A stretch of DNA of 64,000 bases. It comes from an uncultured Candidatus Saccharibacteria bacterium. GTDB lineage: Bacteria > Patescibacteriota > Minisyncoccia > Phycocordibacterales > UBA918. The translations under genes and the position numbers were made by a program. The first letter of the stretch is position 1; every line of letters begins with the position of its first letter. Positions 9,129-62,934 of this stretch are shown here, piece after piece. Location of the stretch: the NCBI GenBank assembly GCA_964353135.1, contig CAYGTV010000001.1, positions 309,497 through 373,496 of the forward strand. The letters run 5' to 3'. The notes under the pieces were generated by a model, which searched no databases, was not told where the DNA came from, and saw only the letters and a list, made by a program, of their open reading frames with translations.

Positions 9129-9685
9129 CTAATCTACGTTAGACAAAGCTGTGTCGAGCACTTGTGTCAGCTCAGCTGAGGTAATAGCACCACGTTTATG
9201 GTGTATAACATCACCCTTTGTGTCATAGATAACTGTTTCAGGCATTGTGTACCCTTCGATTGCTTTATAGTAACGATCATCCTTATCAACAATCAAAAGG
9301 ACCTCATCTGTGAGACCAAGCGTAGACAAAAATGCCTCTGCTGTTGAACGTGGTTCAGCCCGATTGATGGCTATAACCACGACACCCTTGTCTCGGTAAT
9401 TTTTAGCAACGTTGGTTAATAATTGTAATTCAGAAACACTAGAGGGTGCCCAACTCGCCCAACTGTTAACTATCAGTGTCTGGCCCAGAAATTGTTCAAG
9501 ATCAGCTTCATTACCATCAAAATCTGTAAAATTGGCTGTTGTGGTGCTTGATTTCAATACAGTAGACGCTGGGCTTTGATCTAGACTACGTTCCGCTGAG
9601 CGTTTCTGAACAAGGTGTACCGTAAACGCGGCCACTGCCAGAACTACTACCAAAACAAACAAGGTGACGATTGAACTTTTTTTCA
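9129..9685 (-). CDS. Membrane-anchored TlpA/ResA-like thioredoxin-fold protein lacking the CxxC active site (WASWAPSS instead of WxxWCxPC); no cysteine anywhere in the protein.
   Basis: Start verified at the ATG 9685..9683 (MKKSSIVTLFVLVVVLAVAAF), 2 nt after the upstream gene's stop. The ORF track's 9851 start overlaps that upstream gene. Redoxin-like region: LGQTLIVNSWASWAPSSVSELQLL...GVVVIAINRAEP...TMPETVIYDTKGDVIHHKRGAITSAELTQVL. Confidence 0.75.
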
Positions 9686-9687
9686 TA

Positions 9688-11265
9688 CTAGTTGATTTGA
9701 TCAGTACCAAGATACACAGTGATTGGTGCTTCAGACGCGTCATCAGAAATAAAGGACGACAAGAGAGCATCAGCGAAATATTCTTGCAAACGGACTGCTG
9801 ATTCAGCGTAGCTTGGATTGTAAACAATAACAGTTCGATCCTCACTAACATCAGTGTCCGCGCGGTTCACCTGTACTTTGTATCCCTTACTCTCCAAATC
9901 TTGTGCTCGCAACTCATCAAGACCAGCGATTCCACTACGATTTACAATCGTAATCGCAGGCTGATCAATCACAGCTGTTGAATCTCCTTGCAACGGCGGT
10001 AGGTCGGCTTGATCAGGCAAAGCCACCATCGCTCCGTCTTGTTCGTAGCGCACTTCGTACCCATGCTCACTACTGAGAGCTAGTATCAAGTACCACGCAA
10101 ACAAACCAACAAAGATACATACTGCTAAAAGAACGATTAAAAATAGTCTATATTTCTGCACCAGGGGCAGAATACGCGAAATCAATGAACCTTCACCAGA
10201 GGTTAGTTCTGCTCGCAGATCCAAAATACCTTCTTCCAGAGGAGCGGTTACAGAGATAGTACGTTTTGAGCGATGATTCCCATTGTGTAATTCAGGAGTA
10301 ATTCCTGCCATCTGTAGCATTCTGCGAATATATAACTTAACTCCCCAAATGATAAGCCATAGTAGCCCACCAAAGACGAACATAAATAAGAGCAGCGTGC
10401 GCCAAGGAATAACCCAAAAAGAGGTCTCAGCGGTAACAAATTGTCTTGTTAAGTCACCGTAAGCGAGAGTTACTTCAGCTGTGTAGCGCCCCATATCAGC
10501 AAAAGACCAATCACCGACCCATTCGAAATTATATTTCCGGATACTGTTCGGAAGAACATTTCCGAATTGGGACGTTTGGTTAATTGGAATAGTGCCGCGC
10601 TCTCTACCCCACATATTTTTAATAGTAATATTTCCTTGGGGCTGAACGTGAACATTTCCTGCATTTTCAAACCTGATTGAGAATGCAGCTTTTGGTGATT
10701 CACTAACAAATTGTTCAGTAACGAAGTCACGAATCGAACCTCTTTCAACAATGTCACCGGCCACACTTAGAAACACCAATGCCGTCACAACTTGCGACGT
10801 TTCCACTTGCGCCGGCGTCTCTGAATTAGTTAGAGATCGTGTCCCTACAAGAATCGCTGAAAAATGACCACCTGGCGCCGCATCATCAGGAACATTGATT
10901 GAAAATGGTACCGAAACAGTCTGCTCAGCAGGAATAATAATTTCTTCTGTCGGTAACGTAAACCATTCGGCTAAGGTTGTGCCATTTGATTCAGTCTCTA
11001 AGACCGGAATCATAGTTCCCTGCCCAGACTCACCAGATGGTTCAAAATTGACCGCGTTAACATACACCTTCAAAGGGAATGGGTTGGTGTTGATGACTCG
11101 AACAGCACTAGACCAAGCCTGGCTTTTACTGGCAGACATTTCAAACAAAGTTGGTGATACACTCAGGGCAACCGAACCTTGCGCGACAGCAATAGTCGGA
11201 AACAGCCCAAGTAGTAATACCGCAGCCAGCGAAAGTCTTACTTTATTGAGTGAGGTCAATATCAT
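9688..11265 (-). CDS. Fusion protein: signal peptide + DUF916/DUF3324-like beta-rich surface domain + TM helix (KLYIRR) + second TM + C-terminal LytR_C (LCP C-terminal) domain.
   Basis: ATG verified at 11265..11263 (MILTSLNKVRLSLAAVLLLGLFPTIAVAQG). Family core: FSIRFENAGNVHVQPQGNITIKN...GRYTAEVTLAYGD...FWVIPWRTLLLFMFVFGGLLWLIIWGVKLYIRR. LytR_C-like tail: ITIVNRSGIAGLDELRAQDLESKGYKVQVNRADTDVSEDRTVIVYNPSYAESAVRLQEYFADAL...ITVYLGTDQIN. Overlaps the upstream gene by 23 nt. Confidence 0.7.
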   Translation of the reverse strand: MILTSLNKVRLSLAAVLLLGLFPTIAVAQGSVALSVSPTLFEMSASKSQAWSSAVRVINTNPFPLKVYVNAVNFEPSGESGQGTMIPVLETESNGTTLAEWFTLPTEEIIIPAEQTVSVPFSINVPDDAAPGGHFSAILVGTRSLTNSETPAQVETSQVVTALVFLSVAGDIVERGSIRDFVTEQFVSESPKAAFSIRFENAGNVHVQPQGNITIKNMWGRERGTIPINQTSQFGNVLPNSIRKYNFEWVGDWSFADMGRYTAEVTLAYGDLTRQFVTAETSFWVIPWRTLLLFMFVFGGLLWLIIWGVKLYIRRMLQMAGITPELHNGNHRSKRTISVTAPLEEGILDLRAELTSGEGSLISRILPLVQKYRLFLIVLLAVCIFVGLFAWYLILALSSEHGYEVRYEQDGAMVALPDQADLPPLQGDSTAVIDQPAITIVNRSGIAGLDELRAQDLESKGYKVQVNRADTDVSEDRTVIVYNPSYAESAVRLQEYFADALLSSFISDDASEAPITVYLGTDQIN

Positions 11266-12232
11266 GATCTTTTGGTTGAGGCTTATGGCCATCACGAATA
11301 AACAGCGGCACATCGTCGCCAGCTTCAGCAGATTGAACAAAGGTGCTACCGCGGCGCATGAGTAGAAACACTACTAACAACAGTACTGAGAGTAGTCCAA
11401 TAGCAATATAGAGATAGTACAGTGGGAGCATGTAAAATCCGGCAGAATCAAATAGATTAGCACGTTGGTTTGTGCCGTACACCAGGTTTGCGTTTGCCTT
11501 ATAACGTCCCACACTGGCACCCAGTGGAATGTTTGTTGTATATGTTTTAGTTTCAGAAGGTGCAATGGAAACACCTTCAGTGTTGAACGGTAGAGCTGAA
11601 ACTTCTTGACCACGATTATTATAAAAAATAATTTCGCCCGCGGGGGTAGACTCCAGTTCACCTGAATTTTCCACTGTAATTAGAAGCTGCTGCTGATCAC
11701 TGTTAGTAATAAATCGGTCTACAGTCATACTGCTAATTCGCATACTATCTACTCGCTCATCAGCAACAGTCACAGTAACAATAATCCCATCAGCTGCACC
11801 ACGCAGGGCCATCGCTTCTGCATCTTGACGTTTTTTCACTTCTGAAAATCCTACAAAAGCATGGTATACACCAGGCTCTGCGAAGGGGTGAATTTTGATG
11901 TTTAGGGGCAATTCAACCGTCTCATTGGCAGGCACTTCTATTCGTCCTCGAGTGATCTCTATCCAGCTGGTAATACTGTTGGTGCGATCTGACATTACTG
12001 ACGGAACAAACTCTAGAATCTCACCGGCGGTACCAACCGTGATTTCATTAACAGTAGCATATAAGATTGACGTCCTATCTGGATAGGTACTTTTTAAAAC
12101 TACCGTCTCGTCAGCTGCTTCTCGGGGAACCATCGTAACATCAATCAGGAACGGTCTAATGGTTACCTCGCTTGCTTGTGCAAAAGCGGGTAGAAAGAGT
12201 AACGTAAAAATGAGTGTCGATAGCAACTTCAT
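11243..12232 (-). CDS. DUF916/DUF3324-like surface protein: signal peptide, beta-rich ectodomain, single C-terminal TM helix followed by a basic tail. Paralog of 9688..11265, 27450..28394 and 63371..64000.
   Basis: MKLLSTLIFTLLFLPAFAQA signal. ...ITVENSGELESTPAGEIIFYNNRGQEV...GRYKANANLVYG...LPLYYLYIAIGLLSVLLLVVFLLMRRGS. Confidence 0.7.
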   Translation of the reverse strand: MKLLSTLIFTLLFLPAFAQASEVTIRPFLIDVTMVPREAADETVVLKSTYPDRTSILYATVNEITVGTAGEILEFVPSVMSDRTNSITSWIEITRGRIEVPANETVELPLNIKIHPFAEPGVYHAFVGFSEVKKRQDAEAMALRGAADGIIVTVTVADERVDSMRISSMTVDRFITNSDQQQLLITVENSGELESTPAGEIIFYNNRGQEVSALPFNTEGVSIAPSETKTYTTNIPLGASVGRYKANANLVYGTNQRANLFDSAGFYMLPLYYLYIAIGLLSVLLLVVFLLMRRGSTFVQSAEAGDDVPLFIRDGHKPQPKDHDIDLTQ

Positions 12233-12248
12233 ATAGTAATCATACCAT

Positions 12249-15200
12249 CTAAAAGACCGGTGTAGCGATGTACGTTATGTTGGCAATGTAATCACCTTGC
12301 GCCTGATCTTCGGTGACTTTAATTCTGTATACAACGTCGTGTGCCTCATCTACTGGTATAGAGCTATACATCACTTCTGACACGGTCGTATCAAACGCTG
12401 CATACGTGTCTGTAGCTGCAAACCGAGGTGAACCACCTGCTAACGTAGCGTCTGTCGTATGGTATCCAACGCAACTTGCAGCCAGTGCCGTGCAAACTGT
12501 CGACCAACCTCCTGGCGAGGCATTAGTAGAAGCAATGGGTAAAATTTCTGATCCACCACCGTTTGTCAGCTGCTGTCCAGCTAACTTCCATACCTGATAC
12601 CCTTCAACTGCGTTAGTGTCTACTGACAACCTCTGAGCTGCGATAACATCAGTTCCAAATGGAAGCACACCAAAATCCACTGAGGTAGCCGTGGTTGTGA
12701 CACCAGTTGTAACACCAGCTGTTGATGTGGCGGCTGGTAGACCCTCTATGGTAAATACCAAACGTGCACTTTCGGCGACTGCTGCTGGATAGCTTGCGGT
12801 GCTAAATAAAGCTACCGGCTTAGCAGACGCGACGTCAAACAAGCGGAAGTAATATACTGCACTGGATCGTAGCCTTTGGGACTGAATTGTAAATGAATAC
12901 TCTTGTGCAGCTAGAGCCGGGTGGTCATGACCTGCTACATAGTCAGCAGAGCTATTGTGGGTACCACAACCACCGCCACCAGCAGCCACACAAGTGTCCG
13001 AGATCCCTGTGATTGCTGTGGTAATAGTAGCGTTATTGGCACCACCACCGTCTATGTAGCACCACTCATTACTGATCGTACATGAAGATGAGGCTACAAC
13101 ATCTATCGGATTACTGAATGTAATCTCATCAGAAAACTGTAGTTTGAACTTAACGTTTTCGCCAGTCACACTTTTTTGTTCGTCTAGCACTACTCGTAAT
13201 GCCAATGTGTCTTGTGAGATGATCTCGGTCGGTGCTGAATTGAGCGCTTCTAGGGGTGTAGACGGAGTCTCATTTTGTATATCGTCGTACCATCTCCACC
13301 CAATCACTTCTGGTGTAAAATCAGCGGTGCGAAGTTGCGGGTATTGCAAATAGCCAGACAAAGCGCTACCGTCAGACTCAACAACCCGAAAACAATATAC
13401 GGTGTCTGCGGCGGCGCCATTGTGCTCTAGGTACCAGTCGTACTCAACATCCTCGCCATCAAAGGCAATATAGGTGTTTGTTGCTGACTGGTTTTGATGC
13501 TCGAGTGACCCAGCTACATCAGATACCGAGATCAACAGGTCACCTGGAGTCGGTGGATCACCAGAGAGCACGGTACCGTCAGTCGTACCAGTGGCAGCAT
13601 ACCCTCGCCAGATTTCACCAGATCCAGCCTGACCAACATCAGTCCATGAACCAATGGCTGTACAAGTGCTCACTCGCTCGGCATACTGCAGTTTAAACGC
13701 ATAAAAATCAGCTGGCCAGTTAGCGTTTTTTGCCCGTAGTGTCATTCGTAGACGCAGAATTTCACCTACTCCGGGTGGATCGTCAAACTCAGTGATGGAG
13801 GTGTTCTCTCCTAGATCCTCTAAGCCCGCTGGCCAGGCATCATCTGGAGTTAACTGGTTGTTGCCTGTATAAAACCGATAGTAATTTTGTCGGATCGCTA
13901 AATCAGCAACCGGCCACTGAACAATTTCTGCTCGATACTGCAATTGAGTTCCAGTATCACTTCGCCAAAGTTCGTACCGTAATGGATTAACGATCCGTAG
14001 ACCGGCAATTGCTCGCGGGTGAGCGTTGTTGTTTCCGTTGGCTGATGAGTTTCCAAAAATCGAACTGTTATTGATTGCGTCCAATGCATTGACAATTACC
14101 AAAGAGAGGGTTGTAGGTTCCGCCCCTCCTATAGTAGTTCCATTTTGCCTTTCAACCCGCATCGCACCAGCACCAGCCTGTAAATTTTCGATCACCCACG
14201 CAACAGACGTGTGGACTACTCCCATATTTGCAGCCGCGTTTAACTCAAAAGAAACTGCTCCGATACTTGATAAGTAAACTTGGTGACCAAGGGTAGCCAC
14301 TGTCGTTTGCGCTCCAACTCTTTTTTGAGAATGAATGAATGCCTGATCAAGTGAGGTGACCGGGGTTATAGTTTCGGTCTCTATGACGCCGGCTGCTGTG
14401 TATGTGTGCTCAACTCGTTGAATATTCCAGTTTATACCGGTGTATTCCACTACTGCATAGCTGATATTAATATTTGAACCTCCAGTAGCTTCTCGCGTAA
14501 ATACCGGTCGGTTATTAGCACCATCCCAATCCGCGGTAACTTGAGCCGCATAAAAATCGTTTGCAGCATCGTCTCCGGACACGCCAGTTACAAACACCAC
14601 AACATCGGCATCATCTGTAACTGAAACTGCGGGTCCTGAGATAGTCACTTGTCCAGTATTCATACTCACTGTATTGGCATCTCGAACCAACATTTCATTA
14701 TCTGTGTTTGGTTGGGCTATGAACTCTATAATCTCCCAGTCAACATACGTATCAGCAACAACAGCGTTACGAGCAAAGGTAATGCTGGATACAATATTGT
14801 CAGGATTCTGCACATAAGCAGTCACACCAAGCACGTCCTGGGATCCACCACCGGTAGTATTACCAGCCCCAGTATTGTTGGTATTTGTAATACGAATAAA
14901 CGCCAAACTCGAGGAAGCTGGGGCTGTATAATCCACTCCAGCTGTGATTGTTTGCGTAGTACCAGTTAGGACACTATTACCTTGCTGCACCTTGAAATCT
15001 CGCTTGGCTGCAATGCTAACCTCGGGATACTGATCATACTGATTGATGTCGATTCCTTGTCTTGATAGGCGAAAACAGTACGTAGTATTAAACGCAGACG
15101 CAACGGTAGAGGTGAGGCTAAACTCAAATTCAGCAAATTCTAACTCCGTGATAGTTGTGCTCGCTGTTGCACTACTGGTTTCCCGAATACCACTATTTGG

Positions 15201-18200
15201 ATTTATTAGCGATACATTCTCATCTGCAACTCCACCATCTACCTCTGGTATGTTTGTCACATCAGCACCGTGTACGAGGTTTGTTGAATCGTACATATCC
15301 CACGCATCACCGAGCTCCGCATTGACATCTGTCCACACGGCGATCGCCGAACAGCTTGTCACTCGTTCTGCGTATTCCAAATTAAACACCCGCTCAACTG
15401 ACGTTGTGGCGCCCTCGTTACTTACCTGCATGCGTAACCTGATAGGAGTTGCAATTTGGTGGTCGGGTAAGAGTGTGTCCTGTGAACCTGCAGTTGCAGA
15501 TGTGGCACCAGTTTCTGAACCATCATCGTTACGCCAGTGGTAGTGCGTCTGAGTAAGGATGGCACCCTGCAAGGTTGTGACGCCACCAAGCTCAACCGGT
15601 GTAGATGGTGAAACTGATGCTCCAGGGACAATAACGTCACTATTGGCTGACAGGATTGCGAAGCTCACTGTGTCACCATTTAGCGCCGCATCGGTAACAT
15701 CAGCTACTACATACACACACATGGCTTGGGTGGTTAGAATCGTGACACTACCACTAAACGTAGAGCTACCGTTTATATCGCTCATACCATCTGTATCAGT
15801 ACTACCAAACTGTGGCTCTAGTCCACTGTATGTTTCACTGACACAGTTATACGGAGCTGTAGTATCTAAGTCATACAACAGGCGGATATTAGTTAATCCA
15901 GTAGTTGCATCAATAGACCCAGATTCAGCAATAGTTATATCGGTAACGGTATTGCTAGCTGTGTTTTCTCGAATCACAAATGCCCCACCAAAATATAAAT
16001 CGGCTGAAGGAATATCCACTGTGGCTTGCTGTGTACCAGTCTGAGAGACTGTTACTTCTGCGTTGATTGTGGCTTGTGCATACACATCGTATGCATTAAG
16101 ATCAGCCCCACTATTTGAAAGTCTAAAGCAGTAAGTTGCTCCCTCTGTTGCACTAGTTGAAGCAACCAGCGAAAACTCTAGCTCAAGGAATTCGTTGGTT
16201 GCTAGTGTAATCGACCCTGTAGTGTCAGTTGAGTCTCGCACCCCTGCGTTTGGTGTTTTAAAAACGGCATTTTCATCTGTCACTCCTCCAATTCCGTTAG
16301 CGATGTTAGTTGTGTCAGAACCTTCGGTTAGGTTAACCGTTGGCTGCATGTTGAACTGATCATCGGCAGCTCCGACGGCTGTCCACACCGTCACATCAGT
16401 ACAGGTTGGAGCCGCTTCTGCGAACTCTAGTTGATAGATAATTGGGCTAGAACTGGTTGAACCCTCTACTGAGACACCCATCCTAAGTCTAGTAGTTTGC
16501 CCAATCGGTAACGCTCCACGCGGAGTATCTTGGTTTCCAGCCGTCGCTGAAGTAGCACCAGCTTCTGAACCATCGTCGTTTCGCCAGTGATAGTGAGTTT
16601 GGGTTACGTCGGGACTGATTACAGTGGTCGTGTCAGTCAGGGTAACCGGGAAATTTGGTGCAATGTCAGACCCAGTAACTACCACGTCATTTGGTGGGTC
16701 TGTGATTTCGATTTCGATAGTTTGACCATCCCCTGCACTGCTGGTGATATCGGTCACGACATAGAGACAAATTGCTTGGGTCGGACCGACACCGACTGAA
16801 CTACCAGTAAACAATATCTGACCATCTGCGGCATCAAATCCATCGGTATCGGTGCTGCCAAATTGTGATTCACCACCACTATAGGACTCACTAGCGCAAT
16901 TATATGGTGCAGATGAGTCCAAATCATACAGCAGCCGTACATTAGCAAACGCTGTCGAACCATCAACCGTTCCATTTTCACGTATTGTAATATCTGACAC
17001 AGTGTTTGATGTCAAACTGTTGATCACAAATTGTCCACCAATGTAGTTGTTAGTAGTTTCTGACCTCAGCGTTGCAACCTGAGTACCCAGCGTCGACAGG
17101 TTAGAATCAGGACCAATGTTAGCGAGAGTTTCTCCAAATCTGTCGCTGACAGACCCCTCCCACCAGGCTACATACAAACGGTCATAGTTACTAGGATCCA
17201 ACGCTGGTTTTCTGATGTCACCTGGCGTGGTATTTAACGGACCAGTTTCAGTTCCCCAACTTGTCATAGCATCAGTTGATTCCTTGAAATATATATTTCC
17301 CGTACCGGCAGAACCCGGTGTATCCTGTACTGCGTATGCAACATACACGTCACCATTATTTTGATCAATCGCTATGGCTGTATCTAAAATCCCCCGACCA
17401 GTAATGTTTGTTACGACATCAGTCATAAGCGTCCACACCGAGCCGTCGTAAATCGCTGTTCTGACGTCGTCGTTATTATCAGTCAACAAGTTGTTATCAG
17501 CAACATAGGCAAAGTAGATGTTGTTGGTACTTAGATCAACCGTAGCTGACATAGCACCATCGTATTCACTGTTTTCTGGAGCGTTGTTATCGATGGATGT
17601 CCAGGTACCAGACCAAGTGGAACCATTCCAGACTTTTGAGCGGACTTCATTAGCAGAAATGTCTTGGTTAATCAGTAGCACATTGCCACCAGCTAGCGGC
17701 ATAAGCAGGTTGTGGTCGTTTCGTGCATCCAAGGGTGAGGTTCCCACTTCGATCCAGTTAGTTCCAGTCCCACAGGAAGCAGCGCAAGACACGACGTACG
17801 AATCAGAGTTGTCGTTACTGGTCAGATAAATGTCACCATCGGTCGCTTTTGTGATTGCGTGCGTGTTGATTGCGTCAGTGAATGTTGGAGTTTGTCCCGA
17901 GCTTACGGTCGCATTTACTGGCGAACTACCAAGGAGTAATGTGTCAGTCGACGTATCAAGGGCATTATAAAATAAATCATCATCAGACGTATCCATTGTT
18001 GCGATATGAATTGTGGATCCACTGTCACCAGGGGTCCAACGGTCGTACCACACGACAATGCGGATACAGTCAGTTTGGGCGTCAATAGTAACTGCAGCTG
18101 TCCATGTGCTTCCGGCGTCGGTGGTTTTACTATAAACACACGAGCCAGGACTATCTTGGTAAAAGGTATACCCTACTGTGTCCGAAATAAATACAGTTTG

Positions 18201-18392: not shown

Positions 18393-18433
18393 AACTCCGG
18401 TCTTCTTATAATACCTTACTCAGTATGGTTGAA

Positions 18434-20032: not shown

Positions 20033-20255
20033 CAACGAATTAACATACAGCTCTGAGTCAGAACCCGAGCTATTGCTTGTTGTTTTTGGAGGTCTGTATG
20101 TCGAATATACGTTGTAATATAAGGTTTTTTGAGTGCTTCTACGTTTCATTTGTTGGCTTGACTTCGTTCAGTCAAAAAGCCTGTTATTCCCATCACAATA
20201 TAATTTTATCAATCTTTCAAGAGGTTTGAAGGTGTTATCAACACAAACAAGGGCA

Positions 20256-21011: not shown

Positions 21012-21014
21012 TGT

Positions 21015-21695
21015 TTACAAAGACGTTACCGTGTTCCTGATTTGCTCTGCCTGTAGACGTGAGAATGCTAGTGCTTCTCGTGTTTCATTCACGTTTGTTA
21101 ATATTGACAAAATTTCTTCTGAACTCGCGGACTTTCCTGCAATAAGAGCGTCGATGATATTCTTTTGTGCTAAGACTAGCTCAGCAAATAATTCACTCTG
21201 TTTTTGCTCTTCGGTCGCTAGTGCTCGCCACTGCTCTACCTTAGCCTTCTCAAACTCATCGCCAGCAGTTAGCGTGTTGAGCAGAGCAACTTGCTCTTCG
21301 TAAGCTTCAATTTCTCGATTAAACCGAGCAGACATGAGCGATTTACGATCTGAATAGAAACTTGCGCATGAACGGAATAGAACATCGAGCTCACGCAGCT
21401 CGGCTTGAGCAAGTCCACTATCAAGACGTCCAAGTAAACTATCAAACCGCATTCGTTCAGACATAGGACAGTCCCTAATAACGGATTCGGTCACACTATC
21501 AGCTCCATTACGTGCGATTGTTTCAGCAATCGTATTTAGAACTGCCTCTTGTTCTGCAACCTGTACCCGTGAAGCGCTTGTAAAAGAATCAACTCGCTCA
21601 GAGGCGATATACATCCCGAGCAAGATAGACAGAATTAGCAGTCCTGCAACAATGATAAAATTTTCACTTTTTTTGAGTACTGGGATATTAGTCAT
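21015..21695 (-). CDS. Hypothetical N-terminally membrane-anchored, mostly alpha-helical protein.
   Basis: 226-aa ORF with an N-terminal TM (FIIVAGLLILSILLGMYIA). Stop and start abut the flanking genes. Confidence 0.55.
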   Translation of the reverse strand: MTNIPVLKKSENFIIVAGLLILSILLGMYIASERVDSFTSASRVQVAEQEAVLNTIAETIARNGADSVTESVIRDCPMSERMRFDSLLGRLDSGLAQAELRELDVLFRSCASFYSDRKSLMSARFNREIEAYEEQVALLNTLTAGDEFEKAKVEQWRALATEEQKQSELFAELVLAQKNIIDALIAGKSASSEEILSILTNVNETREALAFSRLQAEQIRNTVTSL

Positions 21696-21702
21696 AGGTA
21701 TA

Positions 21703-23454
21703 TTAGCTATCTTTGGTTAATGATGTGACGTCTTTGATTTCCTTCTCTACTGCCTTTTGTGAGGCTTCAAGTGAAGCACCAAACACTGCTAGTGTATCAG
21801 CTTCAGCTTTTGTAAGCTTGTTAGTTTTGCGTGATGCCATAAGCAGTGCTCGTTGTTCTGCAACTGTCTGGTGTAGTGAGGTGAATTCACGCTGCAGAAT
21901 AGTCAACGCTTCGTTTGATTCTACTCCTACCACACCTCTAAATCGACGGTATACAAATAGCATGTACCAGACACCAAACACCAACAATAGAGACAACAGT
22001 ATAAGAGGTACGATGACTGACATTGCATTTACAACTTGTGTTCCGATCCTAATGTAGCCAGGTTCTTGGACAGCGATCCGATACACCTCAGATATTTCTG
22101 ATTGGGCTCCAAACTGATCGGTTGCACGCGCTGATAATTCATATACCCCAGTATATAACGACCCATCGGGGATGAAGGTGAACGTTCCAATTTCGTCACT
22201 TACAGTCTCATATACGTTTTGCTCACTACCAACTCGATTAAAGAAAATTTGTACAGCGGAATTTGGTCTAGTTGAACCTGTAATTACTGGTACAACATTT
22301 ACACTCATGTCAGTTGGAACATCCACAAATACTGGTCGTTCAAAGGACTCAATTGTAAATGAGAAGGTCCCAATGACACTATTGCCAGCGCGATCAAATG
22401 CCTCTACGATCACTGTGTGATAGCCAGGTTCAAGAGCCTCGAGTGTATGCGTTGTTGCCCCAGCTTCGGGTACATACTCATAAGGCTCATTGGCATCAAC
22501 CTTGATTAAATACTTTTCGATACCAGAAGTTTCCTCATCAATTTCAAATTGCAGAGTTTTTGCTGGATTTGATGGATCCGAGCTAGTGGCCAAACTTATT
22601 TTAAAGTTTGTCGGCACTAGAGTATCTACCCCCAGTCGATAGTGCTGTACACCACCCCAACCGTCTGAGTTCTGGAATTGTAAATGGAAATACGACACCC
22701 CTTCCTCTAAATCAGCCAGAGTAATAGAGCTGATAGGGTTCTCATAAACGCGTGTTGGTATACTAGAAGGACTGCTGTTTAAAAGCGTACGCACTGAAGT
22801 GACACCAGCTGGCAGCGTCCACGATAGTTCTGCAGTAGTTTGGTTTGACCAACCATCTGGATTTGGGTGGGTTGTTGACTGAATGTTAGGTGTCGCAGGT
22901 GTATTTGCTGACGGCACATACTCTACAATTACTTCAGGTGCTGGAGCCTCTGTTGCCGCACTAACAGTATATGAACCACCATTCATAGAGGTGAGGATGT
23001 TAGTTCCTCTACCGTCATTAGCTAAAACGGAACCATTAGAAAAAGACACTTGTGATGCCCCAGCCCCTTTGGTTCTAAAAGTTACTGTCACAATTCGTCC
23101 AACTGAGCCTGCAAACCCACTTGGTACTCCGCCGCTAAACGTCACAGTTCCAGCTGAATTCGAAAAGGCCGGTTCAGCTGTCCAAAGATTAAAAATTGAG
23201 CTATTTCTATTGACTGCCACTACAGACAGTTGGTTTGGATTGAATTTAAGTGTACCCTCTGCAGCGTTAACCGACTCTCCGTTGGTGCGAATTTGTACAT
23301 CGACAGAAAATGTTGCTCCAGCTTGGTAGACACCAGTGCTTGGCGATACTTGCATGACCGCCGCTTGAGCAAAACCAACAAAGCACATCCACAGCGCTAG
23401 AACAAAAATGGTTTTAAACAATGTTTGTGGAGTAATAAAGCAAGATTTAGTCAT
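21703..23454 (-). CDS. Surface protein: signal peptide, cohesin-like N-terminal domain, Ig-like middle region, C-terminal TM helix and cytoplasmic coiled-coil tail.
   Basis: ATG verified at 23454..23452 (MTKSCFITPQTLFKTIFVLALWMCFVGFAQAA). Cohesin-like: VSPSTGVYQAGATFSVDVQIRTNGESVNAAEGTLKFNPNQLSVVAVNRNSSIFNLWTAEP...TVTFRTKGAGASQVSF. TM: VIVPLILLSLLLVFGVWYMLFVYRRF. Paralog of 58916..60448. Confidence 0.7.
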   Translation of the reverse strand: MTKSCFITPQTLFKTIFVLALWMCFVGFAQAAVMQVSPSTGVYQAGATFSVDVQIRTNGESVNAAEGTLKFNPNQLSVVAVNRNSSIFNLWTAEPAFSNSAGTVTFSGGVPSGFAGSVGRIVTVTFRTKGAGASQVSFSNGSVLANDGRGTNILTSMNGGSYTVSAATEAPAPEVIVEYVPSANTPATPNIQSTTHPNPDGWSNQTTAELSWTLPAGVTSVRTLLNSSPSSIPTRVYENPISSITLADLEEGVSYFHLQFQNSDGWGGVQHYRLGVDTLVPTNFKISLATSSDPSNPAKTLQFEIDEETSGIEKYLIKVDANEPYEYVPEAGATTHTLEALEPGYHTVIVEAFDRAGNSVIGTFSFTIESFERPVFVDVPTDMSVNVVPVITGSTRPNSAVQIFFNRVGSEQNVYETVSDEIGTFTFIPDGSLYTGVYELSARATDQFGAQSEISEVYRIAVQEPGYIRIGTQVVNAMSVIVPLILLSLLLVFGVWYMLFVYRRFRGVVGVESNEALTILQREFTSLHQTVAEQRALLMASRKTNKLTKAEADTLAVFGASLEASQKAVEKEIKDVTSLTKDS

Positions 23455-24499
23455 GATGAATTTGGGTGTAATTAGCCTCAATTGCCTCTATCTCTGCCTG
23501 ACGTTTTAGGATTGATCGTCGGCGCACAATGAACCACGCACCAACTGCAGCCAGCAGCACCAACATTACAAATAGGACATATGATAAGAATTGTTCAAAC
23601 GAAAGTGTGCGTAGTTCAGCGTCTGGAACCAGAGTTGCAATGTATTCATTACCAGCTTTATCAATCGCACGTACACGGATGATGCTGTTGAGGGACTGAT
23701 CCTCAAGCACATATGGGCTTCTGGCCTCTACCCATGATACGTTTGCTCGACCCCAGATAAACGCGTCAAATTGAGTGAGGGATTCTTCCCGTACTTCATA
23801 GCGATCAATTCCTGTTTGCTTGTCAGTTGTAGTAAACGCTATGTAGTATTTACCAGCAAAGGCTAAGGCGTCCTTTTCCAACTGCAAGCTAAACGGCTGA
23901 GGTGGGACGGTATCAGCATCGATTTCTTCAGTCCATGGATCCTGGGTAATTGCTCCTAACTCTGGTAGAACTGTTATTTTGTTTGGAAACAATTCTAGGT
24001 CGGCTTCTGTTCCAAAACCGTCGTTTAGGTATGCTACGGTTTGCGAAGTAAATTGAACTGAGGCTTCGACAGTTTGACCGTCTTGTGCCAGTACAGAATC
24101 AGCCCTTATAATGACATCAAACAAGTTATTGGTCAGACGTGGATCACCTTCAATCCGTCCACAGTATCCATTTGGAATCCCACCGGCAAACGTGACCTGG
24201 GTTTTATCCTCGTTCAAAGCGGGTGTTTCAACCCAAATGCTAAAAATAGAGTCACCAAGCGACACATCGACAGGCTCAATCGGTCCACTAAAGGTTAAGA
24301 CCCCTTGGACAGCATTAACGCACTCCTCTAACTCTTCGTTTGTGTCTAGTCTAACACTTACCTTGAGGGCATCTCCGCGGGCAATTGTAGTTACACCCGG
24401 ATCAAGGTACAACGAGGCTGCTTGGCCGGCACTAGGAAAAAGTAAAACCAGAAGAAAAAATATCCCCACGGAACGTTTCATATAAATGTAGTATATCAA
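23447..24499 (-). CDS. Surface protein: signal peptide, cohesin-like domain, C-terminal TM anchor + basic tail.
   Basis: MKRSVGIFFLLVLLFPSAGQAASLYLDPGVTTIARGDALKVSVRLDTNEELEECVNAVQGVLTFSGP... C-terminal LSYVLFVMLVLLAAVGAWFIVRRRS. Its last 8 nt overlap the downstream gene's start. Confidence 0.7.
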   Translation of the reverse strand: MIYYIYMKRSVGIFFLLVLLFPSAGQAASLYLDPGVTTIARGDALKVSVRLDTNEELEECVNAVQGVLTFSGPIEPVDVSLGDSIFSIWVETPALNEDKTQVTFAGGIPNGYCGRIEGDPRLTNNLFDVIIRADSVLAQDGQTVEASVQFTSQTVAYLNDGFGTEADLELFPNKITVLPELGAITQDPWTEEIDADTVPPQPFSLQLEKDALAFAGKYYIAFTTTDKQTGIDRYEVREESLTQFDAFIWGRANVSWVEARSPYVLEDQSLNSIIRVRAIDKAGNEYIATLVPDAELRTLSFEQFLSYVLFVMLVLLAAVGAWFIVRRRSILKRQAEIEAIEANYTQIHHD

Positions 24500-24530
24500 C
24501 CGATTTCAGTTGATACCGACTATATACACA

Positions 24531-24555
24531 AACAAAAAACCCACCTCGTGGTGGG
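24531..24555 (-). terminator. Rho-independent terminator downstream of the 24604..25743 gene.
   Basis: Minus-strand transcript: hairpin CCCACC-ACGA-GGUGGG (24555-24540) followed immediately by UUUUUUGUUUGUGU (24539-24526). Confidence 0.5.
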
Positions 24556-24603
24556 AGATAGGGTCTTTTGTGTTATAACTCCAAGCTTAGAGTCCAGTTT
24601 CGA

Positions 24604-25743
24604 TTAGAAAACTGGGGTTGCTACGTATGTCAGCGTAGCAGTGTAATCGTCAGCAGCTTCCTGAAGAGAAGTCACTTCGATTTTGTACAGCACCTCAGCA
24701 GTTCCTTCTCCAGGATTGGTCGCATCTGCTGGACCATCATGTCGAAAGACTTCTACTGGTGTAGTTGAGGCAGAAACAAAGTTTACTCCCCCACTGTACA
24801 GATCTGACAGACCAGCTGTCAGCGTATCATCACTAGATGTTAGTGCCCAGTGACCAGCTTCATTTTCAGCTCCAAGAGAACCACTAGGTGATGCCCAAGG
24901 TGCAGGTGTCGATGTAAAGTCACCGTCGGCGAATCCATCGATATCTGCTCCGTTTGAAGATGTTAGCTGTTGATCTGCAGCAACTGTTACAACAAAGCCG
25001 TTTGCGGCGTTAGTTGAAACTGTTAGTGATTGCGCTGCAGTTGTTGCGTTGTCTGCTACCAGTTCACCGAAAGGAATTTCAGTGGCTGTAGACGTTTTAC
25101 CAACTGGATCTGATCCAATGGTTGTCACATCACCTCCAGCAATACCAGATACCGTAAAGGTAAAGATGGTATCAACTGTGGCAGTGACGGTAACAGCGTC
25201 AACGATTGCTACTCGAGTTTCACCAGAGTCAACTGATCCCGCAGTAACATTGATTTCGTAAGAAATCCCGGCTGTTGCTGGATTAGTGATCTGGTTTACA
25301 CCACTATCAGCGTTTAGACCGATCTGGATGATAACTTCCTGTCCTGCTCCAACTGTACCTGTACCGGAGGTAAAGGTAATGCCGGTTGCAGAGGTTGTTG
25401 CTCCCCAGGTTGCACCAGACGGTGCAGCTGCCAGAGTTACATCTGACCCATTGATGTTGAGATCGAGATCTCCTTCATCTAGAGCAGCGATTCCTGTGAA
25501 AGCGGCATCAAACGTAAGTGTGATGGTTTCACCAGCAGCTACTCCGGTTGGAGTAACAAATTCGATTGTGTGATCTGACACAACACTCGGTGCTGAGTCA
25601 GTCAACGTGTTGCTAAAAGTAGTGACATTTGCCGCCTGCGCGAATTGCAGGGTTGGAAAGCCAAGTGACCACATAATGATCGCAAGACTTGCAACTAAGG
25701 CGGTTGCTTGGAGTACAGAGAACGCATAGTTATTGCGTGACAT
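24604..25743 (-). CDS. Secreted 379-aa T/S/G-rich surface protein whose C-terminal ~180 aa are homologous to the C-terminus of the 2047-aa protein (ends ...VLYKIEVTSLQEAADDYTATLTYVATPVF).
   Basis: Signal anchor: MSRNNYAFSVLQATALVASLAIIMWSLGFPTLQFAQAA. Its N-terminal region (TFSNTLTDSAPSVVSDHTIEF) resembles the N-terminus of the 60993..62885 protein (QFSDTLSDSGPNEQSNHTMRF). Confidence 0.75.
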   Translation of the reverse strand: MSRNNYAFSVLQATALVASLAIIMWSLGFPTLQFAQAANVTTFSNTLTDSAPSVVSDHTIEFVTPTGVAAGETITLTFDAAFTGIAALDEGDLDLNINGSDVTLAAAPSGATWGATTSATGITFTSGTGTVGAGQEVIIQIGLNADSGVNQITNPATAGISYEINVTAGSVDSGETRVAIVDAVTVTATVDTIFTFTVSGIAGGDVTTIGSDPVGKTSTATEIPFGELVADNATTAAQSLTVSTNAANGFVVTVAADQQLTSSNGADIDGFADGDFTSTPAPWASPSGSLGAENEAGHWALTSSDDTLTAGLSDLYSGGVNFVSASTTPVEVFRHDGPADATNPGEGTAEVLYKIEVTSLQEAADDYTATLTYVATPVF

Positions 25744-25978
25744 ATACTCTACGTTGTATTAGCTTACAGTGCCCTTTAGCGTGGTGTGCCTCAGGGATGC
25801 GCCATATTGCTACAGCACATTGTAGTTGAGTCTCCACACTCTATCTACAAAAGATCTACTGTAAACATACCCGCTCTGACACAGGCGGCTGACCTGTATG
25901 CGTACACAAAAAACTGCGTACACTCGGCAATTACTAACTGAATTACCTCCATTGCGGATACTCTACCATTGTACTCTG

Positions 25979-26001
25979 CTCGGCTAGCCGAGATTTTGTT
26001 T
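25979..26001 (+). promoter_or_regulatory. GC hairpin plus T-run (plus-strand terminator-like) inside a 600-bp non-coding gap.
   Basis: ctcggc-ta-gccgag (25979-25992) followed by attttgttta. There is no plus-strand gene to terminate, so it could end an antisense or small RNA. Confidence 0.25.
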
Positions 26002-26300
26002 ATACACAAAAATAAAATTTTTTACCAAAATACACTCTCGCTACTGTTGAAATTTCCAAACTTTGGGTAGGAACTGGTAACAAGTGCTACAGCTAACCTA
26101 GCAAGTGAGTCACACAAAGCTGAACCTTTTGAGCTAAGTCCCACCTCGCTCTGCTTTCGTTTCGCTACAGATCGGGTGTTCTCACTTTCGTTCGAAACGG
26201 ATAAAACCTAGCGGACATCATCCATTACTTACTCAACCAACATGCCTGAAGTACAAACCTGAGCCCCACCTATTTTCTTGCCTAGACGGCATAGAAAATT

Positions 26301-26351
26301 CTGGACTCTCGTCCAGAACGGCTAAAAAGCAAAGCCTTTTGCTTTTTAGCC
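26301..26351 (-). terminator. Probable terminator region of the 26346..27446 gene: two hairpins followed on the minus transcript by AAUUUUCUAU.
   Basis: 14-bp A/T-tract stem ggctaaaaagcaaa-gcct-tttgctttttagcc (26320-26351, overlapping the TAA stop). Then ctggac-tctc-gtccag (26301-26316). Confidence 0.35.
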
Positions 26352-27446: not shown

Positions 27447-27449
27447 AGA

Positions 27450-28394
27450 TTACCCTAACCGCTTACGTCTCATAAAGAGGAAGTACAGCACAGCAATCAA
27501 CAATGCAAAGATCGGTAGAAGTAGCGAGACCTTGTGAGCTATAGACAACCCTGCAAAGCCAAATCCTGCAGCTTGGACGGTACCATATGGCTGCACACTA
27601 AGAGTAAGGTCGCCTTCTTGCTTTAAATCGTCACCGTTAAACACACGATAGCGTGCAATGTAGCTTCCAGCCGGCAGCCTAGTTGGCAGTTCAGCAGTTA
27701 CTGTATCTGTATCGTATGGTGAGACTTTTGCTATTTTACCTATGTTTTGCACTTCTTCGAGCAGAGCTTGGCCTGAGCGATCAAATATCCTAAATTCAAC
27801 TCGTGACGGAGAAATGTCAACGTTACCAGTATTTTCAATCAGCATATCAAACCGGATTTTACCTGGGAAAAACAACCAACCAAATTTAGTTCCTTCATTG
27901 AGTTCAGCAACCGAGATTTTTCTAACCCTGAAGTCTTCTATCTGCCTATCAATAACAGTCAAGGCAATGTCTACACGAGCACCAAGCGAGATGTTAACTG
28001 AACCACGAGCGATGTCTTCATTCGCTGGCAGAGTTCTAATACGGATCGAACCAGTATATTCTTTGAATTCAGCGTCAGCTGGTACAAGCACACGTACGGT
28101 CATAGGAACTTTCTGTAGTCCTGAGGGTAGCTGTATCGGTGTTCCTTCAACAATCTCAAGCCATCCAGCTAGCTCCGGAGCGTCGATGACTATCTCCGCT
28201 TGCTGAGGAGCGGTTGGATCGCTACGAACCAAAAGAATCTGTTGTTCGTAGATTGAATTTCGTGTAAGGCTAGTATTCTTTACGTAGGGCGGTGTAATAC
28301 CAAATCCGGCGTGCACCTTAGCTACCCCCAGGCTCGCAAAGAGAACAGGTACAAGACAAAAAAGCACTAGGAACGTACGGAGTAACCCATTCAT
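27450..28394 (-). CDS. DUF916/DUF3324-like surface protein paralog: signal peptide, beta-rich ectodomain, C-terminal TM + RRKR tail.
   Basis: MNGLLRTFLVLFCLVPVLFASLGVAKVHA. ...FDMLIENTGNVDISPSRVEFRIFDRSG...GSYIARYRVFNGD...VSLLLPIFALLIAVLYFLFMRRKRLG. Its stop lies 3 nt before the next gene's start. Confidence 0.7.
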   Translation of the reverse strand: MNGLLRTFLVLFCLVPVLFASLGVAKVHAGFGITPPYVKNTSLTRNSIYEQQILLVRSDPTAPQQAEIVIDAPELAGWLEIVEGTPIQLPSGLQKVPMTVRVLVPADAEFKEYTGSIRIRTLPANEDIARGSVNISLGARVDIALTVIDRQIEDFRVRKISVAELNEGTKFGWLFFPGKIRFDMLIENTGNVDISPSRVEFRIFDRSGQALLEEVQNIGKIAKVSPYDTDTVTAELPTRLPAGSYIARYRVFNGDDLKQEGDLTLSVQPYGTVQAAGFGFAGLSIAHKVSLLLPIFALLIAVLYFLFMRRKRLG

Positions 28395-28432
28395 ATCAGT
28401 CCTACCATTATCCGCAAAAAAACCTTAAATAG

Positions 28433-28481
28433 CAACAACCTCCGTTGGGATAACGGAGGTTGTTTTTCTGCTTTTTTGTTG
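28433..28481. terminator. Strong 13-bp hairpin between two minus-strand genes. The T-tract is on the plus-strand side, so it could be an antisense-blocking terminator or a leaky attenuator.
   Basis: caacaacctccgtt-gggat-aacggaggttgtt (28433-28464) followed on the plus strand by tttctgcttttttgttgc. On the minus transcript the hairpin is preceded by an A-tract and followed after 11 nt by GGUUUUUUUGCGG. Confidence 0.4.
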
Positions 28482-28485
28482 CTTA

Positions 28486-30420
28486 TTATTGCCAGTCGAC
28501 TGCTTCAGCTGTCACACCAAAGAATGTGTTGAGTCCTGTATAGGCCCCGGCCACATTAATCGCACTCGGTACCGCGATACCCCAGAATGTTTCATCTGTC
28601 TCTGGTGTTGTCGTACTAGTAGACTTGATTACGTTAAGTTCTAGCTCGGCTGGTAGAGCAACCGTTGTGGTTGGTAGGGTTTGAGCAAACGGACTGATGT
28701 AGGATACGGCTGTTGTGGCAAATTTTTGGTTTGAAGTAAAGATAGTCGACGTACCATTCAAAGAACAGTCAGACGATGAGGATACAAAACCTGGACACAT
28801 CGCTGAACCATCCAACAATTGGTCAATCCCGGTGTTACCAATGTTGATGATTGTTGTAGAGGTACTTAATGTTCCTGTGTTATCACCTGGAGCTAGTGCT
28901 CCATATGGGATAACCGCTGTTAGCAAATCAATATACGGTGCACTAGTTAAATCTACCGGGAAATCAGTAGCCACTTGAGAACTTGTTGCAAAGTTATCAT
29001 CTGCGCCTGCAACAGCTGCGATCCATGCGTCTCCAGCAAACGAAGCGGGGGTATTTGGCCCAGCGTCTGTTGGATCAGCCAAGAACCAAAGTGGGAACGT
29101 ACAGTTAAATACTTGGGTCTCATCTGTTGGACCGGTACAACTTGTGCTAGATGCTGTACACGATAGCTGCCAGACATCAAACGGTACTCCGTTAGTGTAA
29201 CAACCGTTTGGGTTGTAATCAGCATTTTGCGGATTACAGTTAGTTGATGTTGAGTAAGCACCAGATGGACCAGAGCGTAATACAGATACCTCAAACCCTA
29301 CAATTTCATCACCCGCAGAGGCATTTTCACAACTGTTCGCGTCTGAGACTGTAAAGTCTAATCTAAAGCCAGTCGTTGTACCTCCTGGTGACGTTAATGT
29401 TAGATCACCAACTCCATCAGTGTCTGCAAGGAAGATGTCACTACCCTGGAGCGTCGGTGCGACGTTTGCTACTTCAAAGTTGGCTTGAATTGGGTTTGCT
29501 GCAGCTTCATGTCCATGCTCATCAAGTAGGAATACAAATGCGTCATACACACGGTCACGAACTGGAATTGCTATGGTTGTTGTAGCGGTAACGTTAGGGT
29601 TTGCTGGTACAGAAGTTGAGGCAATAAAGTTAGCATCACAGTCGTTTGTCACAGGATTATAGTCGATAGCGGCACCACAAACTACGATTGTCATAGTGTC
29701 TGTTCCACCAACAGTGTCAGGATCCGATGAGGTTGAGAGGAATGTTAGAAGTGCACCAGGATCTACTGGTCCATCGTTGTACGCGTTAGTTAGTACCGGA
29801 CGGCTGTTTACGTTAAATGGTGAAGAACTTGATGCTCCAGGTCCAAATAGCCCTTGTGATGGCGTTGGGTTACATTCAGCTTGTACCGGATCGTCATCAC
29901 ATACCCACGCGTACCATTCGTTACTTTCAGCAAACAGTGACGCTGTGGCAGCATCAACTGTAGTTGTTGCAGCAAAGGCAGCTTGCAGGTTAGTGGTTGA
30001 GGCAGATACGGCCCATTGAATTGCTCCTACCCCACATTCAGGAGGTGCAGTTCCAAGAGAGCTTGGGTTAGCAGCTTCATTTGCAGTAGGTGTCGCGTTT
30101 GTACTACACACCAAGAGGAAGTATGGTGCGCCGTTACTGTCGTTGCCTACTGCTGTCCACTGAATCACATCACCAGAGTTAGTTGGACTTGTCGTCGAAG
30201 AAGGTATTACCTCTGTTGGAAGAGTATCAAACGTTGGAGGTGTGTTTAGCACAGTCAAACTGGTGGTTGCAGTCTGTGCGGATACTCGTTGGAATTCTTG
30301 TTGACCAACATCCACCATAAAGGCAAATAGAAAGACAGCTAGACCAGCGACGGCTGCTAGGACTGATATTTTACCGGCTGTTTTCATATAATGTGGGAAG
30401 GCTTCTTTGTTGTACGACAT
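28486..30420 (-). CDS. 644-aa Cys-containing surface protein with an N-terminal signal anchor. Its C-terminal ~250 aa are homologous to the C-terminus of the 8058-aa giant (ends ...TFWGIAVPSAINVAGAYTGLNTFFGVTAEAVDWQ).
   Basis: TM: ISVLAAVAGLAVFLFAFMV. Shared blocks with the giant's C-terminus: ADPTD.., LD(V/L)..AI.YG.., (Y/F)WGI(E/A)VP...TG.N.FF. Possible alternative start at the internal Met (30387). Confidence 0.75.
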   Translation of the reverse strand: MSYNKEAFPHYMKTAGKISVLAAVAGLAVFLFAFMVDVGQQEFQRVSAQTATTSLTVLNTPPTFDTLPTEVIPSSTTSPTNSGDVIQWTAVGNDSNGAPYFLLVCSTNATPTANEAANPSSLGTAPPECGVGAIQWAVSASTTNLQAAFAATTTVDAATASLFAESNEWYAWVCDDDPVQAECNPTPSQGLFGPGASSSSPFNVNSRPVLTNAYNDGPVDPGALLTFLSTSSDPDTVGGTDTMTIVVCGAAIDYNPVTNDCDANFIASTSVPANPNVTATTTIAIPVRDRVYDAFVFLLDEHGHEAAANPIQANFEVANVAPTLQGSDIFLADTDGVGDLTLTSPGGTTTGFRLDFTVSDANSCENASAGDEIVGFEVSVLRSGPSGAYSTSTNCNPQNADYNPNGCYTNGVPFDVWQLSCTASSTSCTGPTDETQVFNCTFPLWFLADPTDAGPNTPASFAGDAWIAAVAGADDNFATSSQVATDFPVDLTSAPYIDLLTAVIPYGALAPGDNTGTLSTSTTIINIGNTGIDQLLDGSAMCPGFVSSSSDCSLNGTSTIFTSNQKFATTAVSYISPFAQTLPTTTVALPAELELNVIKSTSTTTPETDETFWGIAVPSAINVAGAYTGLNTFFGVTAEAVDWQ

Positions 30421-31728: not shown

Positions 31729-31729
31729 A

Positions 31730-33052: not shown

Positions 33053-33053
33053 A

Positions 33054-62885: not shown

Positions 62886-62934
62886 AGCACTATTGTACTG
62901 CACAGTCTGGATGTTTTTTGCTTGATTCCACGGT

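Follow-up and report, generated by a model that had tools for sequence, protein, structure and literature searches.

A candidate donor-strand surface fibre in a bacterium of the candidate phyla radiation: a conserved locus with relatives of WxLIP anchors and Pam pilins

How are very large secreted proteins held and assembled on the surface of a bacterium of the candidate phyla radiation (CPR)? CPR bacteria presumably live in attachment to host cells. The question is raised by a stretch of 64,000 nucleotides from an uncultured, ultra-small bacterium (contig CAYGTV010000001.1, positions 309,497 to 373,496; hereafter the window) whose long open reading frames (ORFs) all lie on the minus strand. 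Four paralogous membrane-anchored proteins, the anchors A1 to A4, are interleaved here with secreted proteins that end in conserved C-terminal domains of two types, type 1 and type 2. Judged from the relatives of the locus, the host is confirmed as a CPR bacterium of the Paceibacteria, in agreement with the CPR/Patescibacteria-like host guessed in the initial annotation.

In our reading, to which we give a probability of about 0.6, the locus encodes a chaperone-assisted donor-strand surface fibre of a single-membrane bacterium, with giant adhesins; this fibre would be a variant Pam pilus that is homologous to the WxL/WxLIP clusters of Firmicutes. The reading is carried by the homology of the anchors to WxLIP, the homology of the type-1 domain to Pam pilins, the domain layouts of the proteins and a conserved synteny. 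The system is real and strongly conserved, and its mechanism is deduced from homology. The components of the proposed fibre are the following.

9688–11265, minus strand: anchor A2, 525 residues; Pfam LytR_C 3e-8, PF06030 E 0.008
11243–12232, minus strand: anchor A1, 329 residues; linked to A2 by BLASTP
12249–18392, minus strand: secreted protein of 2047 residues, type-1 C-terminal domain at 12252–12821; found by NF058581 and by BLASTP to the 379-residue protein
24604–25743, minus strand: pilin of 379 residues; signal peptide, beta-sandwich, linker and type-1 domain
27450–28394, minus strand: anchor A3, 314 residues; linked to A1 by BLASTP
28486–30420, minus strand: secreted protein of 644 residues, type-2 C-terminal domain at 28489–29133; BLASTP to the C-terminus of the 8058-residue protein
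34656–58832, minus strand: giant secreted protein of 8058 residues, type-2 C-terminal domain at 34659–35303
63371–64000, minus strand: C-terminal part of anchor A4, cut by the window end; linked to A2 by BLASTP

Anchors related to WxLIP

The four paralogs lie where the initial annotation had placed them, and BLASTP links them all (A2–A4, E 1e-24; A1–A2, 6e-18; A1–A4, 1e-13; A1–A3, 1e-6) at a low pairwise identity of 21–28%. Subfamily profiles built independently from the orthologues of each anchor type were compared with hhalign: A4 aligns with A2 at P 2.5e-53, and A3, the most divergent of the four, aligns with A4 at P 2e-11 and with A2 at P 3e-9 and 96% probability, the probability of A3 against A2 or A4 being 96–97%. 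The four-way alignment reveals EN.G and GRY.A blocks common to all anchors and a hydrophobic C-terminal helix followed by an invariant RR. The shared blocks, C-terminal transmembrane helix and basic tail ascribed to the paralogs are thus borne out; the helix is not always single, since A2 has a second membrane helix and A4 a second hydrophobic segment. A2 is built of a signal peptide, two beta-sandwich domains, a membrane helix with RR, a cytoplasmic loop, a second helix and LytR_C. That the whole family reflects chance similarity or a gene-calling artefact is favoured by the low pairwise identity and by nothing else; BLASTP values down to 1e-24, hundreds to thousands of homologues and conserved synteny speak against it, and we consider this explanation already refuted.

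The anchors are tied to WxLIP, the WxL-interacting proteins of Gram-positive bacteria (DUF916), by sequence profile and by predicted fold. PF06030 matches 50 of 67 A2-type members at E<=0.01 (best 2.3e-9) and, at the same threshold, 20 of 47 among the remaining anchor types (best 1.8e-9); it matches none of 23 A3-type orthologues. An AlphaFold2 (AF2) model of A2 residues 1–330, with a mean predicted local distance difference test score (pLDDT) of 86.5, displays two beta-sandwiches followed by a long membrane helix. Compared with the PDB by Foldseek, this model has the Enterococcus faecium WxLIP (9i1y/9i25) as its top match, at E 6e-11 and a template modelling (TM) score of up to 0.51, with an alignment of 270 columns that covers both domains. 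Entry 9i25 is the solved complex of WxLIP with a long WxL protein. The chaperones CfaA, CsuC, Caf1M and DraB come next, with target-normalised TM scores of 0.5–0.57, and RbmA and transglutaminase domains were also matched. In the model, a low-confidence loop (142–158) lies directly before the last strand of domain 1 (159–168). We infer from the model that residues ~142–168 would lie where WxLIP has its hairpin and where PapD-type chaperones have their F1–G1 loop and G1 donor strand.

Because PF06030 matches occur across the family and the top folds in the PDB are those of WxLIP, we read A1–A4 as homologues of WxLIP, and the relation to DUF916 suggested for the ~300-residue paralogs is supported. 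The companion suggestion of a relation to DUF3324 finds no support at the sequence level, with no PF11797 match among 137 anchor entries in Pfam scans of three overlapping alignments. Scanned against NCBIfam, 45 anchors matched neither a Pam chaperone model nor any one family consistently, and a PDB search with the anchor profile gave EfmWxLIP1 at no better than E 0.31.

Anchors of this kind could also serve a static display as in WxL/Csc clusters, in which each anchor holds one cargo protein through its C-terminal domain and no polymer forms. The homology to WxLIP and the solved complex with a long WxL protein fit such a display, as do the number of components (four anchors, four cargo proteins) and the fusion of A2 to LytR_C, which suggests a structural role in the envelope. 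The properties of the cargo proteins bear on this alternative from both sides.

The pilin and the two types of C-terminal domain

BLASTP recovers both pairs of C-terminal domains that had been noticed at the outset: type 1 over the last ~170–190 residues of the 2047- and 379-residue proteins (E 6e-15), and type 2 over the last ~200 residues of the 644- and 8058-residue proteins (E 3e-11). NF058581 (CPR_Pam_pilin_C) matches the last 147 residues of the 2047-residue protein over model positions 2–148 of 148 (E 1.1e-8, 35.3 bits) and the 379-residue protein weakly (18.4 bits). Within the pilin family it matches 48 of 54 members at E<=0.01, with a best E of 2.4e-9, and it is the sole family matched. 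On this sequence evidence, the type-1 domain is homologous to the C-terminal domain of Pam pilins. The idea of a previously undescribed system is thereby set aside: type 1 matches CPR_Pam_pilin_C, and a 2026 preprint describes Pam pili of CPR bacteria (10.64898/2026.03.03.709456). There, cryo-electron microscopy of filaments of Ca. Mycosynbacter amalyticus identified the pilins PamA and PamB. In these, one subunit lends its linker to the next, whose C-terminal domain it completes, and conservation is higher in the linker and C-terminal domain than in the N-terminal domain. The operon also encodes PamC and PamD, chaperones of the PapD/FimC kind that consist of two domains and carry a membrane helix at the C-terminus (10.64898/2026.03.03.709456).

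The 379-residue pilin of the window is encoded in three parts: an N-terminal beta-sandwich (25219–25623), a linker (25150–25218) and the type-1 domain (24607–25149). Its AF2 model (pLDDT 83) shows the sandwich at residues 41–180 (pLDDT 90–97), a low-confidence linker at 181–193 and the C-terminal domain at 194–379. The linker region, about residues 176–198, is made of alternating V/I/A/T/F hydrophobics and includes the stretch VAIVDAVTVTATVDTIFTFTV (residues 178–198 on the gene's own numbering), a putative donor strand. Over 82 species-level sequences, conservation is highest in the linker (0.77), followed by the C-terminal domain (0.66) and the N-terminal domain (0.59). The pilin has 1652 homologues. 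PDB sequence and profile searches with the pilin found nothing relevant, nor did those with the type-1 domain; fold searches with the pilin model were unspecific, and the PamA/PamB coordinates (25PZ/25QA) were not among the matches returned from the PDB sequence and fold searches. The flanks of the pilin gene (24540–26319) comprise a 600-bp upstream spacer with promoter-like sites at 25865–25819 and terminator-like hairpins before (26319–26298) and after (24562–24540) the gene, the counts of such sites and hairpins not exceeding shuffled expectation. An Rfam search of the spacer found no family. The pilin gene is apparently its own, monocistronic transcription unit.

The 2047-residue protein differs from the pilin in its layout. 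The stretch before its type-1 domain is unlike the conserved pilin linker, and a Pfam scan of its passenger region found no domain. With a type-1 domain but no linker, the protein would accept a strand and donate none, and therefore would sit at the tip; we propose that it is a tip adhesin. Annotation with hidden Markov models (HMMs) found no protein consisting of the type-1 domain alone in the window. In one related locus (L004, 4999–5502), a 168-residue ORF beside an anchor holds type-1 domain sequence only, possibly a PamT-like or small-WxL-like subunit. The 667-residue protein encoded at 60993–62996 resembles the pilin in its signal peptide, in a conserved mature N-terminus of the form SDTLSDS.P..SNHT and in roughly two thirds of the N-terminal domain; the pilin N-terminal HMM matches it at E 1e-17 over the first two thirds of the domain. 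It lacks both the linker and the type-1 C-terminal domain. A role for this protein as a donor-strand terminator was considered and dropped, linker similarity being absent and the match being confined to two thirds of the N-terminal domain.

Neither type of C-terminal domain shows sequence similarity to the WxL domain. PF13731 matched no window protein scanned, none of 54 type-1 members at E<=1 and none of 49 type-2 members at E<=0.01, and the dual Trp-x-Leu motif is absent from both types. The end of type 1, ..TLTYVATPVF, contains no Trp, and type 2 has a single conserved WGI. Among the W/Y-x-(L/I) motifs put forward in the initial annotation, this WGI is the part that holds; the rest are not conserved, and YQVWK of the 2047-residue protein cannot be a conserved motif because the type-1 family has GFVVTV at that place. 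Thus, the likeness to WxL systems persists in the anchors (PF06030, WxLIP fold) and in the logic of the cluster, and is unsupported for the WxL motifs and for the C-terminal domains as WxL domains.

Type 2 is a large family. A HMMER search with a 15-sequence profile collected 1714 clusters (50% identity) at E<=1e-3, of which 468 reached E<=1e-30. Among 147 new representatives listed, the domain lies at most 10 residues from the C-terminus in 137 of 140 full-length matches. Its carriers range from about 200 to 8058 residues, with DUF2341, FN3, propellers and lectin-type domains in their N-terminal regions; the 8058-residue protein of the window has lectin-like domains, its Pfam matches being Laminin_G_3 (1e-31), DUF2341, Pentaxin and Ig_Rha78A_N. 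The family has conserved cysteines and a WGI.VP...G.Y.G motif, with W and G of the WGI nearly invariant, and searches of Pfam, NCBIfam and the PDB with the type-2 domain gave no match. We propose, from its position and synteny, that type 2 is an alternative attachment or assembly module.

How do these features bear on a static display? The pairing of a small with a large subunit resembles WxL clusters, and the carriers of type 2 are of any size, as would be expected of a tag for sorting or anchoring. Type 1, however, matches the Pam pilin model and not WxL, and the 379-residue protein is laid out like a Pam pilin and has a highly conserved alternating linker that would be needless for mere cargo. 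This protein is also very conserved and apparently monocistronic, as is typical of an abundant structural subunit. A static display is a fair rival because polymerisation is itself deduced from relatives, and we consider it rather unlikely; assembly of a donor-strand fibre is likelier than mere docking of cargo.

Gene order in relatives and the neighbouring genes

The surroundings of the pilin gene were scanned in one genome per species, and 80 loci were kept for HMM annotation. At least 204 species-level genomes encode the pilin. The 80 loci come from metagenome-assembled genomes of Paceibacteria type (Kaiserbacteria, Nomurabacteria, Pacebacteria and Parcubacteria), and in 71 of them an anchor adjoins the pilin, the other nine being mostly short or cut contigs; the synteny of anchor and cargo genes expected in related genomes is indeed found.

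Three recurring arrangements correspond to the three anchor neighbourhoods of the window. First: in 44 loci, a giant type-2 gene, ~4 kb, a ~625-residue type-2 gene, a ~320-residue anchor gene, ~1.4 kb and the pilin gene follow one another, as they do in the window from 34656 through 24604. The A3-type anchor always lies directly downstream of the ~625-residue type-2 gene in these 44 loci. Second: in 27 loci, the pilin gene is followed by a ~360-residue anchor and mostly then by a ~640-residue protein with a pilin-like N-terminus. Because A4 and the 667-residue protein match this arrangement, a second pilin gene probably lies just past position 64000, upstream of A4. Third: a ~2050-residue type-1 protein, an anchor and an anchor with LytR_C follow one another, corresponding to the 2047-residue protein, A1 and A2; this order is present in three of the loci (L001, L002 and L078) and in an orthologous locus of 52% identity. 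In the window, the A1 gene begins 16 nt past the stop of the 2047-residue gene, and there is an overlap between A1 and the start of A2.

Two pilin loci, in the first and second arrangements, are present in several genomes (L051/L052, L029/L053), and L078 has tandem pilin genes beside a 2075-residue/anchor/anchor block. A 4.8-kb contig binned as 'Balneolia' (L076, PXDL01000553.1) has the Paceibacteria-type order of type-2, anchor and pilin genes and is probably mis-binned.

The genes that accompany these components in the window are the following.

9129–9686, minus strand: TlpA/Redoxin-like membrane-tethered thiol-disulfide oxidoreductase; Pfam Redoxin E 1e-12, AhpC-TSA 2e-10
18434–20149, minus strand: secreted protein of 571 residues, function unassigned, conserved upstream of the 2047-residue gene
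20256–24499, minus strand: cohesin/dockerin block (Pfam; paralogy by BLASTP), made up of the next four genes
20256–21011, minus strand: protein with cohesin and dockerin
21015–21695, minus strand: membrane protein
21703–23481, minus strand: protein with cohesin, Big_13 and a membrane helix
23447–24499, minus strand: cohesin-like protein with a membrane helix
26346–27446, minus strand: secreted DUF4215 / Big_6 / Big_7 protein with a terminal dockerin (Pfam)
30514–31728, minus strand: MacB/FtsX-type ATP-binding cassette (ABC) permease; Pfam FtsX 4e-17, MacB_PCD 8e-17
31730–33103, minus strand: ABC ATPase; Pfam ABC_tran 2.5e-32
33054–34652, minus strand: secreted FN3-repeat protein; Pfam fn3 1e-22
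58916–60448, minus strand: 510-residue paralog of the protein at 21703, with cohesin-like N-terminus, Big_13 and membrane helix; BLASTP E 7e-65, Pfam Big_13
60993–62996, minus strand: 667-residue protein with pilin-like N-terminal domain, Big_6/Big_13 and C-terminal dockerin (HMM, Pfam)

The start codon of the redoxin gene lies 1 nt past the stop codon of A2, and L001 has a redoxin and a DsbA-like gene at the equivalent place. Although 9129–9686 had been included in the span first assigned to the paralogs and their cargo, it holds this redoxin gene, outside the paralog set; its position beside A2 may point to disulfide handling of exported subunits. The 571-residue protein has W-rich repeats and an N-terminal part that is acidic and of low complexity, and a Pfam scan of it found no match; L001 and L002 have a 517–535-residue gene in its position, upstream of the gene of the 2047-residue type. 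The ABC pair and the FN3 protein (30514–34652) sit between the two type-2 genes, a spacing of ~4 kb that recurs in relatives. A small Hsp20/alpha-crystallin gene (60451–60942) also lies within this locus of surface proteins. Neither an Rfam scan nor a tRNA scan revealed RNA genes in the window.

The cohesin and dockerin domains reported in the initial annotation are above the Pfam cutoffs: Cohesin at 6e-7 and 4e-6 (30.1 and 27.4 bits; cutoff 24.1), with Big_13 at 9e-13, and Dockerin_1 at 26.9 and 28.5 bits (cutoff 22.9). The set includes three cohesin-like proteins with a C-terminal membrane helix, one protein with both cohesin and dockerin, and two secreted Ig-repeat proteins ending in a dockerin; of the latter, the protein at 26346 is a paralog of the C-terminal half of the one at 60993 (BLASTP E 4e-54). 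Could these proteins be the real display system, and A1–A4 be unrelated surface proteins or adhesins of Ig-like fold that play no part in assembly? Three membrane-helix cohesin proteins and three dockerin proteins are interleaved here with scores above cutoff, two-domain Ig-like folds are common, and the anchor model also matched RbmA and transglutaminase domains. However, the type-1 and type-2 proteins all lack a dockerin, the anchors specifically adjoin type-1 and type-2 proteins across 71 genomes and match WxLIP in sequence and fold, and both systems can coexist. We therefore hold this explanation to be very improbable. The cohesin–dockerin set could be a second, independent tether for the same surface structure.

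Proposed assembly and comparison with known systems

We combined the sequence, model and synteny evidence into a scheme of assembly for the donor-strand fibre. All components carry signal peptides and would be exported through Sec. The anchors A1–A4 would be held in the cell membrane by the C-terminal helix, with the RR tail in the cytoplasm and the two Ig-like domains facing outward, as sequence and model indicate. By analogy with WxLIP–WxL and PapD, a strand of anchor domain 1 would enter the incomplete beta-sandwich of the subunit C-terminal domain and keep the subunit competent for assembly. The 379-residue protein would form the shaft: its linker (176–198) would take the place of the chaperone strand, thereby completing the C-terminal domain of the subunit assembled before it, as proposed by analogy with PamA/PamB. 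The 2047-residue protein, an acceptor domain without the conserved linker, would stand at the tip as an adhesin. The 644- and 8058-residue proteins would be attached via the type-2 module, the smaller one always being paired with A3.

Several points weigh against this scheme. First: strand donation and polymerisation are deduced by homology and analogy, and A1–A4 are likened to PamC/PamD by published description and not by sequence. Second: profile scores are low. The window A2 reaches 16.6 bits against PF06030 (E 0.008; cutoff 27.3), while the A3 subfamily and the window's A1 and A4 have no PF06030 match and are tied to A2 through paralogy. Every NF058581 match is below the curated cutoff of 55 bits (35 and 18 bits in the window), so the NCBI pipeline would leave these proteins unnamed. 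Third: type 1 and type 2 are not significantly related by hhalign at three depths (best P 0.0055), the alignment being collinear over 159 columns with a score of 24.6 against 13.2 for a reversed control. Fourth: the preprint places Pam pilins mainly in Saccharimonadia and Microgenomatia, and not in Paceibacteria.

The wider meaning of the locus lies in its two sets of relatives. Because its anchors are recognisable as WxLIP and its subunits as Pam pilins, the locus may be a bridging form. We tentatively suggest, as an idea that is rather less likely than the fibre itself, that WxL/WxLIP (Csc) and Pam are one ancient donor-strand system of single-membrane bacteria that is built on membrane-anchored chaperones, with type 2 as a second acceptor module for adhesins of up to 8000 residues. 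That its anchors are tied to WxLIP by sequence suggests that Pam pili share an origin with the WxL clusters for adhesion in enterococci, listeriae and lactobacilli; if true, simple docking would give way to strand donation of the chaperone type in the reading of both systems. WxL goes unmentioned in the Pam preprint (10.64898/2026.03.03.709456), so the link may be new, and the literature searched yielded no paper linking Pam and WxL systems. For the CPR bacteria themselves, a Pam-like fibre kit would be widespread in Paceibacteria, in at least 204 species-level genomes, with proteins that curated models leave unnamed. The giant lectin-bearing proteins coupled to the kit are candidates for host recognition, and type 2, a large family that lacks annotation, is a marker of surface proteins in these organisms.

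Among known systems, cellulosome-type assemblies share with the locus cohesin and dockerin on separate proteins, which are found here in accompanying genes and not in the anchors or the proteins with type-1 and type-2 domains. Chaperone–usher pili (PapD, FimC, Caf1M, CsuC, CfaA) are closer: the chaperone fold is the next-best structural match to the anchors, the principle of donor-strand complementation and exchange is proposed here as well, and a tip adhesin there likewise joins a passenger to a pilin domain. In contrast, the locus has no usher and its host no outer membrane, its chaperones would be membrane-anchored, and the donor strand would be an internal linker instead of an N-terminal extension. 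Pfam scans of the locus proteins found no match to usher, PapD_N or PapD_C, which places this likeness at the level of the fold.

The WxL/Csc clusters resemble the locus in their anchors, which have a signal peptide, two Ig-like domains and a C-terminal membrane helix, and in the combination of one or more anchors with a small and a large protein that have a common C-terminal domain (379/2047 and 644/8058 residues here). In AF2 models of that system, a strand of WxLIP completes the beta-sandwich of the WxL protein (Hassan et al. 2023, PMC10599100), and a strand from the anchor would complete the partner's sandwich in both systems, as predicted there and deduced here. Complexes of chaperone and pilin follow this principle too. 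The locus differs in lacking PF13731, PF11797 and the dual Trp-x-Leu motif, in a small subunit with an extra N-terminal domain and linker, as in Pam pilins, and in its host, a CPR bacterium instead of Firmicutes.

The Pam pilus differs from the locus in several respects. The host class is Paceibacteria/Parcubacteria here and Saccharimonadia or Microgenomatia there. The locus has four anchor paralogs, of which A2 is fused to LytR_C; it carries the Pam-type domain on a 2047-residue protein as well; an extra type-2 module is present on proteins of 644 and 8058 residues; and cohesin/dockerin and MacB-type ABC genes are interleaved. The locus lacks the ATP synthase neighbourhood, and no RbmA-like PamR was identified; the membrane-anchored cohesin-like proteins are candidates for a PamR-like anchoring role. 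The likenesses begin with the superphylum, CPR in both cases. They extend to the layout of the pilin, which the AF2 model of the 379-residue protein predicts as a signal peptide, a beta-sandwich, a single linker strand and, last, a C-terminal domain, and to its conservation, which is greatest in the linker and C-terminal domain. A redoxin gene adjoins the locus here, and Pam pilins contain paired cysteines. Finally, two-domain, chaperone-like proteins with a membrane helix stand beside the pilins in both systems.

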